A stretch of 64,000 bases of DNA from positions 3,539-67,538 of the forward strand of contig CAVHFU010000003.1 of assembly GCA_963635575.1 (NCBI GenBank), written 5' to 3'. Origin of the DNA: a bacterium. Lineage in GTDB: Bacteria; Bacillota; Clostridia; TANB77; RGIG9151. This document shows, piece by piece, positions 13,541 through 15,211 of this stretch. The notes under the pieces are model-generated. The model did not search any database and was not told where the DNA came from. It saw only the letters and a list, made by a program, of their open reading frames with translations. Each line of letters begins with the position of its first letter. Position 1 is the first letter of the stretch. A program made the position numbers and the translations under genes.

Positions 13541-15211
13541 TTAATAATTCCCATTTTCAAAAATCTCTATCCATGTCTTAGCAATGCTTTTTTTATGCTC
13601 CATATCAACTTCTGTAATTTTAGAGGTATTACAAATTTTTTCATCTATCGCTAGTTGAGCTGCTACTAACATCTCACTTCTCACTAAATGTATAAAATTA
13701 TACATAACTGCATTATGAATAAAATTTACAGCATTTCCTTTTCTAATAAGGAAAAAACTATTACACTCATTTTCGTATTTATAGATGTGTGATTGAACTT
13801 GGGTAACCTTATATTCAGATTCCAAATACTTCGAATCTATTTCATCATCAGAAGAAGTAACAGAAAATATATAAGCTCCCTTTTTTACTTTTCTAAAATC
13901 AATTATATCTAAAGAATGATTACCAGTTGATAAAAACAAAATATCAGAATTTTCGATAATATATTTTTTCTTTCTTATGCTACACATTCTATTACAAGCT
14001 TCTATTTGCTTTATTGGATTTATATCATAAACTAAAGGTTTAACTCCCTTTTGTAGCAAATGCTTACCTATTGACGAACCAATTTTACCAAACCCTATTA
14101 TTCCGCACGTCTTGTATTCTACTAAAGTACCAACTTCTCTTAATAATGTTTCCGCTGAAAAAACTACAGACTCACCAACCAAATAATCTTCATTTTCCTT
14201 TAATATACTCCTTGCCACTGATATTATTTTCACATTAGTTCTTGCATTTTCATACTTTTGATACCCATTTTCGGTATCCTCTATTATACACTTTATGTTT
14301 TTACACAATTCACTTTTTTTAGTAACAAATTCATAAAAATATCCGCCAATATCAAAAATAATAATTTTTTTCTTGCCTTTTTTCATAATTTCTTCAACAA
14401 ACTTTGAATTAATAACATCATCCCGTTTAATCATCTTTATTGGGAATTTGTTTTTTATTTTGTCTAGTACACTCTCGTCTATAGAATTAGGTTTGGGAAT
14501 TAATAATTCAATAGGGCATACGTAATTTAAACTTTCTAAATATTCTACGCAATCCGGAATTATATGGCTTACAACTATACTCCTATATTCCCTTAGATCT
14601 ATGTTAAACTTCTCAATTATTTTATTATAATAACGAATAATTTTTTGTTCAGAATTTAATATGTTAAAAATTTTATTTATAACTCTTTCAAATTGGGGAT
14701 TTGTCCTTAATTCAGCAATATCTACCCATTTATAAGTATTAGACTCTGTATTATCTATTAAAATTTTAGAAGAATCTTCAACAATAAACAAATATCTAAA
14801 GTCATGGTGGTAATGTGGAGGCATATCTTTTTTGAAATTTTCAGGAATATAATGAGTATTTATGTCAAAAGGCACATTTTTATCGCAAAAAATATTTACG
14901 AGTTCCAGTTCTTTTAATTGGGTTTCTTCATAAATTTCTCTACGTGCTGTATCTAGCAAACTGTTATCATTTTCATCTACATGCCCACCTGGTTGTAAAA
15001 ATTTGTTTAATTTTTTATGTTCCAACAATAAGATTTTCTTGTCATTTCTAGAATAAATAAAACCACTAGCTGTTATATGACCTATTAGGTTACGAGGATT
15101 ATAGATATCACTACCATTTTTAATGAAATCCTCTAATTGTTTTAATTCATTACATTCATTCTTATAATACTGCGAATATTTTACTAAAATCTCTTCTAAT
15201 GCTATTTTCAT
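13541..15211 (-). CDS. Nudix hydrolase fused to divergent S-adenosyl-L-homocysteine hydrolase-like (AdoHcyase fold, NAD-binding) domain
   Basis: Start revised to ATG 15211 (GGAGG 5 nt upstream) rather than 15250. Nudix box [26 protein letters not shown]-terminal ~370 aa align to SAHH: [13 protein letters not shown]~[24 protein letters not shown]~[24 protein letters not shown]~[22 protein letters not shown]~[26 protein letters not shown]...[12 protein letters not shown]~NIFVTTTGCIDII...IVCNIGHFDVEID. Confidence 0.65.

Follow-up and report, generated by a model that had tools for sequence, protein, structure and literature searches.

Several anti-phage effectors deplete or modify nucleotides, such as the anti-phage dCTP deaminase, dGTPase, and the prokaryotic viperins. 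We know of no described defence effector that uses NAD-dependent sugar oxidation. In puromycin-type pathways, the NAD-dependent ATP 3′-dehydrogenase Pur10 is accompanied by Pur7, a Nudix enzyme acting on a modified NTP; Pur10 is not known to have the fold of S-adenosylhomocysteine hydrolase (SAHH), and an aminotransferase is essential in this type of pathway. Enzymes with the SAHH fold are, to our knowledge, textbook examples of proteins with a single function, and few re-purposed relatives are known, one being AgmF. This SAHH homologue from angustmycin biosynthesis has tightly bound NAD+ and carries out a 5′,6′-dehydration instead of hydrolysis (PMC8599513). It does not hydrolyse SAH; acting on a nucleoside, it stops once the elimination across the exocyclic carbon has taken place, with water as the leaving group, and its gene cluster also includes phosphoribosyltransferase and phosphatase genes (PMC8599513). 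AgmF retains and requires residues H56, D129, K184, D188, and H299 (PMC8599513).

The fusion gene and its flanking repeats

The window, meaning the whole stretch of 64,000 nucleotides of clostridial DNA analysed here, contains a gene for a protein in which a Nudix domain is followed by an SAHH-like module, referred to below as S (Table 1). A preliminary description of this locus had proposed an unusual fusion, and this has been confirmed: Pfam NUDIX and AdoHcyase_NAD both score above their cut-offs in one intact open reading frame, so that the Nudix domain is truly joined to a divergent fold of the NAD-binding SAHH type. The protein is 100% identical to the homologue P0001, and most of its 642 homologues have 550–590 residues with the same two domains. 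The start codon is the ATG at 15211–15209 on the minus strand; a longer frame from a GTG at 15250 was rejected, having neither a Shine-Dalgarno sequence nor support from homologues. The G + C content is 27% in the 12–14 kb block, which covers the 3′ end of the fusion gene and a downstream lipoprotein gene, compared with ∼32% in the window.

Table 1. Features of the Nudix–S locus, with positions in the window.
Feature	Position	Strand	Basis
CDS, Nudix/SAHH-like fusion, complete, 556 aa (MKIALEE...ENGNY, stop)	13541..15211	-	ORF, Pfam, homologues
Shine-Dalgarno GGAGG, 5 nt 5′ of ATG 15211	15217..15221	-	sequence inspection
Nudix domain, residues 1–190, N-terminal helical extension included	14642..15211	-	Pfam PF00293 and PDB 3fcm profile match
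Nudix box region, residues 75–99 (25 residues)	14915..14989	-	family alignment
Module S, residues 195–556: substrate-binding-like domain and NAD-binding Rossmann domain	13544..14629	-	NCBIfam, Foldseek, profile, hhalign
EDTENG, residues 311–316, equivalent to SAHH EETTTG (human 155–160)	14264..14281	-	hhalign
ARSxLKxxEDxLVGxS, residues 333–348	14168..14215	-	hhalign, conservation
NAD-binding Rossmann domain, residues 355–497	13721..14149	-	Pfam PF00670, hhalign, conservation
SVTSSDDE, residues 450–457, replacing SAHH NIGHFDVE	13838..13861	-	hhalign, conservation
Direct repeat copy A, 297 nt	15135..15431		repeat search, sequence inspection
Direct repeat copy B, 297 nt, beginning 4 nt past the fusion-gene stop	13240..13536		repeat search
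27-codon stub ORF in and past copy B	13233..13316	-	sequence
Terminator-like hairpin with 15 stem pairs, belonging to the pyruvate phosphate dikinase (PPDK) gene upstream	15287..15319		hairpin prediction from sequence
Identical terminator-like hairpin in copy B, 117 nt 3′ of the fusion-gene stop	13392..13424		sequence

A repeat search found that the gene is bracketed by perfect direct repeats (100% identity) that are spaced 1895 nt apart. Neither these repeats nor the minority status of the fused architecture had been part of the preliminary description. Copy A reaches from within the PPDK gene, of which it holds the final 100 nt, through the PPDK terminator and the leader into the fusion gene, whose initial 77 nt it includes. 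The stub in copy B is a duplicate of the fusion-gene 5′ end and continues into unrelated sequence. The repeat junction is also present in the independent contig L091 (99.4% identical; the ends overlap by 35 nt). An assembly artefact was rejected on this basis, since the junction recurs in an independent assembly of a different sample, which differs by 11 SNPs. Given the hairpin of the PPDK gene upstream, the fusion gene would need a promoter of its own within the 75 nt between hairpin and ATG, and the hairpin in copy B would provide the end of the fusion-gene transcript.

The Nudix domain

Residues 47–170 match Pfam NUDIX with E=9e-13 and 48.8 bits, against a cut-off of 21.1. The best family matches are the NTP-type enzymes NudB, RppH, and YtkD, and not the ADP-ribose or NADH pyrophosphatases, and the Nudix structures matched by the domain are PDB entries 3fcm, 1jrk, and 3f6a. 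The first of these, 3fcm, is a structural-genomics entry for a stand-alone protein deposited as ‘Hydrolase, NUDIX family’, which aligns end to end with profile residues 7–194 (E=1e-20) and shares the N-terminal helices, H45/T47/S49, and the GGH and HxH motifs; it has no S module, and its deposited name gives no function.

The Nudix box had been described as canonical, but is better called near-canonical. In the family alignment G75, G76, and H77 are invariant and the REx2EE element is intact, its residues R91, E92, E95, and E96 each reaching at least 90% conservation, but compared with the pattern GX5EX7REUXEEXGU there is a one-residue insertion before R91, and Asp82 takes the position of the first Glu. 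A further change, Gln98 in place of the Nudix-box Gly, occurs in the window protein only. The domain also has a conserved His/Asp set (H45, H77, D116, H120, H133, H135, and D137 in the same alignment), and it is apparently a pyrophosphohydrolase that we predict to be active.

The S module and its active site

The AlphaFold model is confident (pLDDT 91.5, pTM 0.87), and the best 50 Foldseek matches in the PDB are all SAHH, over 385–453 aligned columns, with target-normalised TM scores of 0.61–0.78 and E-values down to 1e-19. The similarity claimed in the preliminary description therefore extends over both SAHH domains, with the family profile covering roughly residues 52–402 of SAHH chains, and S did not turn out to be an unrelated Rossmann family, such as 2-hydroxyacid dehydrogenase, with no SAHH N-terminal domain. 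The description of S as full-length needs some qualification: both domains are present, but the first ∼50 SAHH residues have no counterpart by profile or hhalign, nor does the C-terminal tail (human K426/Y430), which in SAHH completes the NAD site of the adjoining subunit, by global hhalign; the window protein ends ∼55 residues past its GNAVNF motif. In sequence, Pfam AdoHcyase_NAD matches residues 355–497 (E=2.7e-12, 47.5 bits, cut-off 27), and NCBIfam adenosylhomocysteinase models align residues 240–498 with positions 78–343 of a 418-position profile. Among the best 60 chains of a PDB sequence search, 47 were from the SAHH family, eight were Nudix proteins, and four were dehydrogenases, along with KtrA. 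Equivalents of the listed SAHH motifs can be located by hhalign, with substitutions, as the preliminary description had stated: DIGGYF corresponds to DDGGD, EDTENG to EETTTG, and an 11-residue segment to CNIGHFDVEID, with further equivalents in a 14-residue and a 19-residue segment, the last matching EIDPINALQA.

Identity to SAHH in the structural matches is 16–20%, and the equivalog cut-offs of NCBIfam are missed (NF004005, 64.9 bits against 275; TIGR00936, 53 bits against 497.6). S is a separate family, far more divergent than AgmF, and the window protein is not an SAHH. The preliminary description knew of no characterised example, and likewise no characterised member of the S family was found in family libraries, the PDB, or the literature searched. 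A literature search for the Nudix–SAHH fusion found none, the sole relevant paper being that on AgmF (PMC8599513).

Residues of S were mapped to human SAHH numbering with hhalign, and their conservation was assessed over 131 diverse S domains. The residues that in SAHH hold the ribose 2′- and 3′-OH and drive oxidation of the 3′-OH by bound NAD+ are kept: K338 (K186 of SAHH; 99% conserved), D342 (D190; 93%), H216 (H55; 99%), T313 (T157; 99%), and D312, a conservative change of E156. In the same EDTENG motif, E311 is 100% conserved, and T158/T159 are replaced by E314/N315. The NAD+ site of SAHH is predicted to be retained, with the glycine motif G373-x-G-x-x-G378, an acidic residue after β2 at position 396, that of E243 (D396 in the window protein; Asp in 108 of the 131 domains and Glu in 23), and N496 (99%) at the position of N346. 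The residues on the 5′ side, which in SAHH serve water addition and homocysteine release, are replaced, with D131 becoming I288, the catalytic H301 becoming S453 (99% conserved), and N191 becoming Y343 (Tyr or Phe across the family), along with deletion of the H353 loop. These losses are common to essentially all members. Thus, for the catalytic residues highlighted in the preliminary description, the Lys/Asp pair and the equivalent of H55 have been kept, whereas H301 and the H353 loop have not. Furthermore, S has acquired invariant residues of its own, namely R334 (replacing D182; 95% conserved), E341 (replacing F189; 100%), and K240; E457 in the SVTSSDDE segment is 100% conserved.

Distribution, architectures, and gene neighbourhoods

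The S family comprises ∼300 clusters at 50% identity, with relatives in ∼504 of 185,579 species genomes (about 0.27%), among them Clostridia, CPR bacteria, and a DPANN archaeon. The module stands alone in 89 of 130 representatives, so the fused form is a minority architecture. The matches found by tblastn span the Nudix and S parts of the query at 78 of 80 genome loci, the exceptions being L058 and L064. Various arrangements are found, including the Nudix–S order of the window, the reverse S–Nudix fusion (P0149, P0155), separate overlapping Nudix and S genes in both orders (L050, L044), and triples of the type Nudix–S–HD or S–Nudix–HD at the same two loci. Pairs of S with a YedJ-like HD phosphohydrolase occur on 41 Lactiplantibacillus plasmids and on plasmids of Pediococcus and Staphylococcus. 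Together, these arrangements suggest that S is functionally coupled to a nucleotide pyrophosphohydrolase, either Nudix or HD. The ∼300 clusters of the family keep the machinery of NAD-dependent oxidation within an otherwise remodelled active site, always in conjunction with a nucleotide pyrophosphohydrolase.

In a bacterial contig, S is located N-terminal to NB-ARC STAND NTPases (P0250 and P0261; NB-ARC, AAA_22, DUF7779), which have the P-loops GLGGVGKS and GMGGVGKT (GxGGxGK(S/T)) and an hhhhDD motif; the window protein has no such fusion. These fusions are few, with two clear NB-ARC matches and three more proteins with long uncharacterised C-terminal extensions. Their tails look like eukaryotic ones, and these proteins may therefore act as secreted effectors and not as immune sensors. 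In a phage collection only two weak matches were obtained, both Nudix-only, and IMG/VR, with 2.9 million contigs, yielded four loci, of which three or more lie at the end of a contig; this scarcity indicates that S is not a phage gene. The family is widespread, sparse, and horizontally mobile rather than part of core metabolism.

A census of 144 flanking genes at 39 loci (raw counts, from gene calls with a GC3 filter) included AAA_17/18 kinases (7), HD proteins (4), NDK (3), CYTH (3), 2H phosphoesterases (3), PfkB (2), and DegT-type aminotransferases (2). Other nucleotide genes were found at single loci: a dCTP-deaminase-like gene with a dNK at L014, DNMK at L031, and NT5C at L040. Several loci adjoin defence genes. 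For example, the gene is directly followed by SIR2 and HerA in L038, by type I restriction–modification M and S genes in L015, and by mad3/GajA-like ATPases in L077; it is flanked by GmrSD/MTase/DndB in L007 and by an integrase and restriction–modification genes in L001, and the kinase of L014 matches the dCTPase model of PADLOC. Many other loci are ordinary housekeeping neighbourhoods, including that of the window, where the neighbours are PPDK, RmuC, and a surface protein. No family of PADLOC-DB v2.0.0 matched the window protein at E-values up to 1, and the downstream lipoprotein was also without a match. The signalling or defence role raised in the preliminary description thus gains circumstantial support, on the side of defence or conflict, from the defence-island neighbours and the NB-ARC fusions. 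The conserved neighbours in CPR bacteria (kinases, 2H phosphoesterase) fit salvage equally with conflict.

Two other associations were set aside. A queuosine link was considered, as TGT genes lie near S in L011/L012, L019/L020, and L039; they are housekeeping genes that are 1.5–6 kb away or convergent, so their proximity is probably due to chance. A role in sugar nucleotides or LPS would rely on epimerase, WbqC, DegT, and glycosyltransferase genes that are confined to Streptomyces and a single Acidobacteriota locus.

Proposed function and alternatives

The reading that we prefer, to which we assign a probability of roughly 0.45, is that the protein is a bifunctional, two-step nucleotide-processing enzyme from an uncharacterised mobile family that would be used in biological conflict. 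The Nudix domain, or the YedJ-like HD phosphohydrolase in relatives, would first release the monophosphate from a compound of the nucleoside tri- or diphosphate type. The tightly bound NAD+ of S would then transiently oxidise C3′ of the ribose, allowing S to remodel the sugar before C3′ is re-reduced by NADH. For the remodelling step we favour β-elimination of the 5′ substituent, with phosphate leaving, which would give a 4′,5′-unsaturated 5′-deoxynucleoside in a reaction of the type catalysed by AgmF, where it is water that leaves; epimerisation at C2′/C3′ would be an alternative. On balance, nucleotides would be removed irreversibly, or a nucleoside antimetabolite produced, serving anti-phage or abortive defence or antagonism between microbes. 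A conflict role would explain the patchy mobile spread, the defence-island neighbours, and the N-terminal place of S in NB-ARC STAND NTPases. The chemistry of S is inferred by extrapolation from residue conservation. AgmF needs the equivalents of D129 and H299 that are missing from S, so S need not work in the same way.

A more specific version of the proposal, which we rate as rather unlikely, is that S is a new immune or antagonistic effector. With its tightly bound NAD+, S would oxidise the 3′-OH of nucleotides trimmed by Nudix or HD enzymes and then expel the 5′-phosphate, leaving 4′,5′-didehydro-5′-deoxynucleosides that cannot be rephosphorylated. It would serve as a defence encoded by a single gene, as the effector of NB-ARC/STAND proteins, and within nucleoside clusters on plasmids. 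If true, this would be a chemistry for nucleotide depletion or antimetabolite production that has not been described previously. A conflict role for the family, if true, would extend nucleotide-based immunity by a new type of reaction and would also open a new way to nucleoside analogues with modified sugars, which are of pharmacological interest.

Some of the same observations can be read in terms of NAD or ADP-ribose metabolism, with the Nudix domain cleaving NAD(H) or ADP-ribose and S binding or transforming the adenosine moiety for salvage or signalling. The Rossmann NAD site of S is intact by sequence, a NadD-like NMN adenylyltransferase and a CYTH gene lie directly downstream in L028, SIR2 genes are neighbours in two loci, and the 2H phosphoesterases that recur in Saccharibacteria can process ADP-ribose phosphates. 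We nevertheless regard this as unlikely, since the Rossmann NAD of SAHH-fold enzymes is a cofactor and not a substrate, and S keeps the substrate domain and the catalytic Lys/Asp. Furthermore, the Nudix matches are of NTP type, the SIR2 gene of L038 is part of a complete SIR2–HerA system of its own, and the recurrent neighbours are mostly (deoxy)nucleotide kinases, NDK, CYTH, dCTP-deaminase-like, NT5C, and HD/Nudix genes, with L028 the one NMNAT-like locus. The NAD- or ADP-ribose-derived substrate put forward in the preliminary description is therefore not established, and neither is adenine as the base, given that the deleted H353 loop is the part that binds adenine in SAHH. Nudix and YedJ/YpgQ-type HD enzymes are classically called house-cleaning enzymes, and S could belong to housekeeping sanitation or salvage, in which an aberrant or scavenged nucleotide is destroyed or recycled, and which would matter most in reduced genomes (CPR, DPANN). 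This would suit the conserved synteny in Saccharibacteria (L021–L027), where a P-loop kinase and a 2H phosphoesterase accompany the gene, the c60–NDK–target–CYTH operon common to a Micrarchaeota archaeon and a Bacteroidota bacterium (L030, L032), the PfkB kinase upstream in L050, and the insertion of the gene between secY and adk in L003–L006. However, presence in ∼0.27% of species is very sparse and patchy for housekeeping, the context differs even between close relatives, and the family is found on plasmids, near integrases, and fused to STAND NTPases, all of which make this explanation doubtful.

A further reading, again improbable, is that of a tailoring enzyme for a secreted nucleoside antimetabolite, with S modifying the sugar, Nudix or HD trimming phosphates, and a transporter exporting the product. 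The best example is pHD40-5_1 of S. epidermidis, in which genes for a flavin monooxygenase, a NUDIX protein, a PLP enzyme, a PyrE-like phosphoribosyltransferase, HD, S, and an MFS transporter are co-directional; MFS–HD–S operons are present on L. plantarum plasmids, Streptomyces loci include epimerase/dehydratase, cytidylyltransferase, histidine phosphatase, and WbqC genes, and AgmF provides a precedent (PMC8599513). In the window and many other loci, the gene is on its own, a phosphoribosyltransferase, a transporter, and other biosynthetic genes all being absent, and the fusion is typical of non-producers (gut Clostridia, Bacteroidota, CPR). Finally, relatives are publicly annotated as ‘adenosylhomocysteinase’ or ‘S-adenosyl-L-homocysteine hydrolase’, and Pfam 2-Hacid_dh_C scores above its cut-off (32.8 against 25.1 bits), which could suggest an ordinary SAHH of the methyl cycle fused to a MutT-type Nudix domain, or a generic 2-hydroxyacid dehydrogenase. 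Neither is credible to any real extent: the equivalog scores are far under their cut-offs, identity is low, D131, N191, H301, and the H353 loop are lost, and 2-hydroxyacid dehydrogenases are absent from the best 50 Foldseek matches and score below AdoHcyase_NAD in Pfam. The public annotation of the relatives is misleading and needs correction.

Comparison with known systems

SAHH itself (AhcY; EC 3.13.2.1; PDB 1li4, 3x2f, and 6aph) shares with S the two-domain fold, the NAD site, and the residues for ribose oxidation, with target-normalised TM up to 0.78; S differs in being obligately paired with a Nudix or HD phosphohydrolase and in being sparse and mobile. In AgmF, H56, K184, and D188 have equivalents in H216, K338, and D342 of S, whereas D129 and H299 correspond to Ile288 and Ser453. 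Unlike S, AgmF carries an SAHH-like annotation and clusters with sequences of that kind, and no Nudix partner has been described for it, but the S. epidermidis plasmid cluster follows the same logic as the AgmF cluster.

With the anti-phage nucleotide effectors, S shares a patchy, mobile spread and neighbours in defence islands, and the kinases adjoining S loci are similar to the kinase portion of the anti-phage dCTP deaminase. In the few NB-ARC proteins of the family, S takes the N-terminal position at which bacterial STAND/Avs proteins have their enzymatic effectors. Puromycin-type pathways depend on an aminotransferase, whereas only 2 of the 144 neighbours counted here are DegT-type aminotransferases. 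The likeness to these pathways is in the chemistry, where NAD-dependent oxidation of a nucleotide 3′-OH is coupled to a Nudix enzyme, as proposed here for S.

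Gene and domain structure

The fusion gene is genuine, intact and well supported. It occupies most of a single long ORF on the minus strand (13541-15250), and the start proposed in the preliminary description, the ATG at 15211, is backed both by a Shine-Dalgarno sequence (GGAGG) 5 nt upstream and by the matching position at which all homologues begin. The neighbouring gene for pyruvate phosphate dikinase (PPDK) ends in a strong terminator-like hairpin, so the fusion gene forms a transcription unit of its own. On the other side, the small lipoprotein gene matched no family, and the surface protein combines SLH-like repeats at the N-terminus with a vWA-like segment and, at the C-terminus, a long, strongly acidic tail rich in Glu, Asp and Lys. 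GC skew is negative in all 2-kb blocks of the window (1-64000; cumulative skew -8) and the seven long ORFs inspected, between about 8 and 21 kb, all read in the minus direction. The window therefore seems to be part of one replichore, read from the lagging-strand side.

Positions of the features discussed, in the window and in related loci
Sequence	Feature	Position (strand)	Remark
Window	Surface protein, SLH/vWA	7975-12303 (-)	1442 aa; immediately downstream of the locus
Window	Small lipoprotein gene	12533-13174	Downstream of fusion gene
Window	27-codon stub ORF	13233-13316 (-)	Product of downstream repeat copy
Window	297-nt direct repeat, downstream copy	13240-13536	Starts 4 nt past fusion gene stop
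Window	Fusion gene	13541-15211 (-)	556 aa
Window	297-nt direct repeat, upstream copy	15135-15431	1895 nt from downstream copy
Window	Terminator-like hairpin	15287-15319	End of PPDK
Window	PPDK gene	15332-17959	Upstream of fusion gene
L003	Family member, 58% identical	about 7959-9689	Between secY and adk; L003-L006, gut metagenome contigs
L012	48-nt direct repeats	9853-9900 and 12528-12575	46/48 identical
L014	Tandem array of 41-nt unit	8124-8412
L031	Nudix-S, Nudix, DNMK	9959-12901	Saccharimonadales
L095	MFS transporter, YedJ-like HD, S operon	4873-8065	L. plantarum plasmid pL1708-2, NZ_CP017376.1
L096	Co-directional cluster	1-8416	S. epidermidis plasmid pHD40-5_1, CP052964.1
L092	S-NB-ARC-repeat protein P0250	8001-11531	About 1200 aa; Gammaproteobacteria-type contig
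L093	S-NB-ARC-repeat protein P0263	1254-4931	About 1200 aa; Gammaproteobacteria-type contig
	S-NB-ARC-repeat protein P0261		About 1200 aa; Gammaproteobacteria-type contig

Both halves of the protein are recognized by Pfam above the gathering score: NUDIX at residues 47-170 (48.8 bits) and AdoHcyase_NAD at residues 355-497 (47.5 bits). NCBIfam models of S-adenosylhomocysteine hydrolase (SAHH) align to residues 240-498. A profile built from 52 family members matches, over profile residues 7-194, the stand-alone Nudix structure 3fcm, together with SAHH chains of solved structure over SAHH residues from about 52 to 402. The AlphaFold model built on the same 52-member alignment is confident (pLDDT 91.5, pTM 0.87), the latter value suggesting that the two halves are arranged in a defined way, and all of the best 50 Foldseek matches in the PDB are SAHHs (385-453 aligned columns). 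The proposed fusion of a Nudix domain with an SAHH-like module (residues 195-556, referred to as S) is thus borne out, and the region matched includes the SAHH substrate domain, as opposed to an unrelated Rossmann family. Two details of the preliminary description need adjusting: the Nudix box called canonical conserves REx2EE but has a one-residue insertion and Asp at the first Glu position, and the SAHH fold called full-length comprises both domains but has no counterpart of the first ~50 residues or of the C-terminal tail.

Comparison of the active site with SAHH

A genuine SAHH is ruled out by equivalog scores of 65 and 53 bits against NCBIfam cut-offs of 275 and 498, by 16-20% identity to SAHH structures, and by the loss of D131, N191, H301 and the H353 loop. 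Residues were mapped by profile alignment of the window protein to a human SAHH sequence whose key residues were confirmed by script to lie at their textbook positions. Six are kept (human H55, D130, T157, K186, D190 and N346 correspond to H216, D287, T313, K338, D342 and N496) and three change conservatively (E59 to D220, E156 to D312, E243 to D396). Others are changed (T158/T159 to E314/N315, D182 to R334, F189 to E341) or lost (D131 to I288, N191 to Y343, H301 to S453), and the adenine-binding H353 loop is deleted. The same pattern is found across 131 diverse family members, in which conservation is 99-100% at H216, E311, T313, K338, E341, S453, E457 and N496, and 95% at R334.

In SAHH, according to Takata 2002 and Yamada 2005 as relayed in PMC8599513, the ribose hydroxyls are held by K186, D190, E156 and T157, which also support C3' oxidation by bound NAD+; the residues acting on the 5' side are D131, H55 and H301. 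Judged by the residues kept and replaced, and by their conservation, S has an NAD site and retains the machinery for NAD-dependent 3'-oxidation; the water-adding, homocysteine-handling part is rebuilt on the 5' side, and the base pocket is changed. This pattern marks an enzyme that is active but has a new reaction, as opposed to a decayed SAHH, and the active-site signatures of both catalytic modules are intact.

Family, architectures and partners of S

A word-index search returned 642 homologues, nearly all 550-590 aa long with both domains, and named, if at all, only 'NUDIX domain-containing protein' or 'adenosylhomocysteinase'. With one genome scanned per species, relatives occur in 504 of 185,579 species, including Clostridia, Bacteroidota, Planctomycetota, Acidobacteriota, Burkholderiales, Bdellovibrionales, many Streptomyces, CPR bacteria (Saccharibacteria, Moranbacteria) and a Micrarchaeota archaeon. 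Searching exhaustively with HMMER for S only (residues 195-556) gave 301 representative clusters at E<=1e-30. Among the 130 representatives whose architecture was counted, S stands alone in 89, follows Nudix as in the window in 26, precedes it in 5 (confirmed for P0149 and P0155) and carries a long C-terminal extension in 5; the other 5 have other architectures. Stand-alone S genes normally overlap a neighbouring gene of the same Nudix subfamily, in the order S-Nudix in Actinobacteria, Bdellovibrionales and some Patescibacteria and Nudix-S in Paraburkholderia and Rhizobium. Furthermore, tblastn matches cover both parts of the query at 78 of 80 genome loci (exceptions L058 and L064). Fusions and split genes, each in both orders, count as classical evidence for cooperation between the two activities. 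One Saccharimonadales locus (L031) has a fused Nudix-S gene, then a separate Nudix of the same subfamily, then a T4-type deoxynucleotide monophosphate kinase (DNMK).

Homologues of S are also carried by 41 Lactiplantibacillus plasmids, by several Pediococcus plasmids and by Staphylococcus plasmids. Here the Nudix partner is absent; the gene overlaps one for a YedJ-like HD phosphohydrolase, with an MFS transporter adjacent. Of the Lactiplantibacillus and Pediococcus plasmids, L095 is the one whose operon was inspected; S in L095 and its homologues on the others share the annotation 'S-adenosyl-L-homocysteine hydrolase'. The Staphylococcus epidermidis cluster (L096) encodes a ParB-N-domain protein, an HpaB-like flavin monooxygenase, NUDIX, an aminopeptidase-P-like protein, a PLP enzyme, a PyrE-like phosphoribosyltransferase, HD, S and an MFS transporter, and looks like an uncharacterised nucleoside or nucleobase antimetabolite cluster on the plasmid of a skin commensal. 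Nudix, S and HD occur together at several chromosomal loci (L044-46, L050, L041). What stays constant as the partner of S is thus a nucleotide (pyro)phosphohydrolase, to which it is obligately coupled.

In five representatives S is the N-terminal part of a much longer protein, with its signature motifs kept in all. P0250 (1176 aa) and P0261 (1219 aa) match NB-ARC, AAA_22 and DUF7779; their P-loop (GLGGVGKS/GMGGVGKT), hhhhDD and TTR motifs are classic, and helical repeats come after them. In STAND/NLR-type proteins the N-terminal position is normally that of the effector domain. P0250 lies on a bacterial contig, flanked by flagellar and polyamine genes, and P0263 comes from a Gammaproteobacteria MAG. 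These three proteins have a eukaryote-like look, with basic, NLS-like N-terminal stretches and Ser-rich/KKKAK C-terminal tails; instead of immune sensors, they may be effectors that intracellular bacteria secrete.

Mobility and genomic context

The two 297-nt repeats that bracket the fusion gene are identical throughout. Each begins or ends inside a gene, taking in 100 nt of the PPDK 3' end with its terminator as well as the leader and the opening 77 nt of the fusion gene. The stub ORF that arises from the downstream copy has a duplicate Shine-Dalgarno sequence of its own and shortly precedes the lipoprotein gene. The repeat-bounded structure is real, since the same stop-to-PPDK junction is found in an independent metagenome contig (L091; 1930 nt, 11 mismatches, 99.4% identical), whose ends overlap each other by 35 nt. 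The 1,895-nt unit is compatible with a tandem or circular form or with single-crossover entry, and if the repeats recombined, the fusion gene would be deleted cleanly. The 2-kb block holding the 3' end of the gene has a GC content of 27%, against about 32% for the window, and the closest relatives (78% identity, L011/L012) have a different neighbourhood; in L012 the 48-nt repeats bracket the relative and a downstream response-regulator-like gene. Together, the repeats, low GC and different neighbourhoods characterise the fusion gene as an accessory, recently mobile one.

Context varies strongly, also between close relatives. Among 144 neighbouring genes at 39 non-redundant loci, the leading Pfam families are AAA_17/AAA_18 P-loop kinases (7), HD (4), NDK (3), CYTH (3), 2H phosphoesterases (3), PfkB kinases (2) and TGT (2). 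For example, a Micrarchaeota archaeon and a Bacteroidota bacterium share the operon-like order unknown-NDK-target-CYTH (L030, L032). In other such arrangements the target is followed by dCTP-deaminase-like, dNK and kinase genes (L014), CYTH and a NadD-like NMNAT (L028), an extra Nudix and DNMK (L031) or NT5C (L040), and L050 reads Nudix, PfkB, S, Nudix, HD. Other loci place SIR2+HerA directly 3' of it (Planctomicrobium, L038), type I RM M and S subunits downstream (L015), mad3/GajA-like ATPases nearby (L077), or an integrase and RM system (L001) or GmrSD/MTase/DndB (L007) on its flanks. Against PADLOC, the L014 kinase matches the dCTPase model and the fusion protein matches none; the protein is also essentially absent from phage genomes. 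This defence and mobility theme is indicative only. In one gut lineage (L003-L006) the gene is inserted within an otherwise canonical ribosomal-protein (spc/alpha) operon, an unusual site for an accessory gene. In L014 at least six copies of a 41-nt unit with the palindrome TGTAAGATTACA precede a DUF6261 gene, itself 5' of the target; these copies may serve as operators or iterons.

Possible biological role and proposed reaction

Taking mobility, neighbours and STAND fusions together, the best fit is a role in conflict, whether as defence, as abortive infection or through production of an antimetabolite. Two rivals are still live: NAD/ADP-ribose metabolism, and salvage or sanitation where genomes are reduced. 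CYTH enzymes carry out tri- and polyphosphate chemistry, and the CYTH, kinase and NDK neighbours are compatible with a nucleotide substrate without identifying it. The preliminary description of the protein is correct; its proposal of an adenine- or NAD-derivative enzyme in signalling or defence is only partly supported.

As a candidate reaction, the Nudix or HD partner would convert an NTP or NDP-X to the monophosphate, and S with bound NAD+ would oxidise C3', acidifying C4'-H (and C2'-H). The 5' substituent would be eliminated next; phosphate is a good leaving group, which would make the general acids D131 and H301 dispensable, and the invariant new residues R334 and K240 could hold it. Re-reduction of C3' by NADH would then release a 4',5'-didehydro-5'-deoxynucleoside. 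The main chemical alternative to this elimination is epimerisation by S.

Both folds are already known, and the family is uncharacterised: no description of it was found in NCBIfam, PADLOC, solved structures or the literature searched. It is regarded as a separate clade of NAD enzymes with the SAHH fold, in which the active site has been rebuilt and a pyrophosphohydrolase is an obligate partner. New enzymology is a good prospect with the fusion protein, and a new mechanism of defence or antagonism a possible one. A precedent for a changed reaction is AgmF, an SAHH homologue of angustmycin biosynthesis that binds NAD+ tightly and dehydrates psicofuranine to angustmycin A, with no SAH hydrolysis (PMC8599513). 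AgmF, however, keeps the residues that S has lost, and S is therefore not an AgmF.
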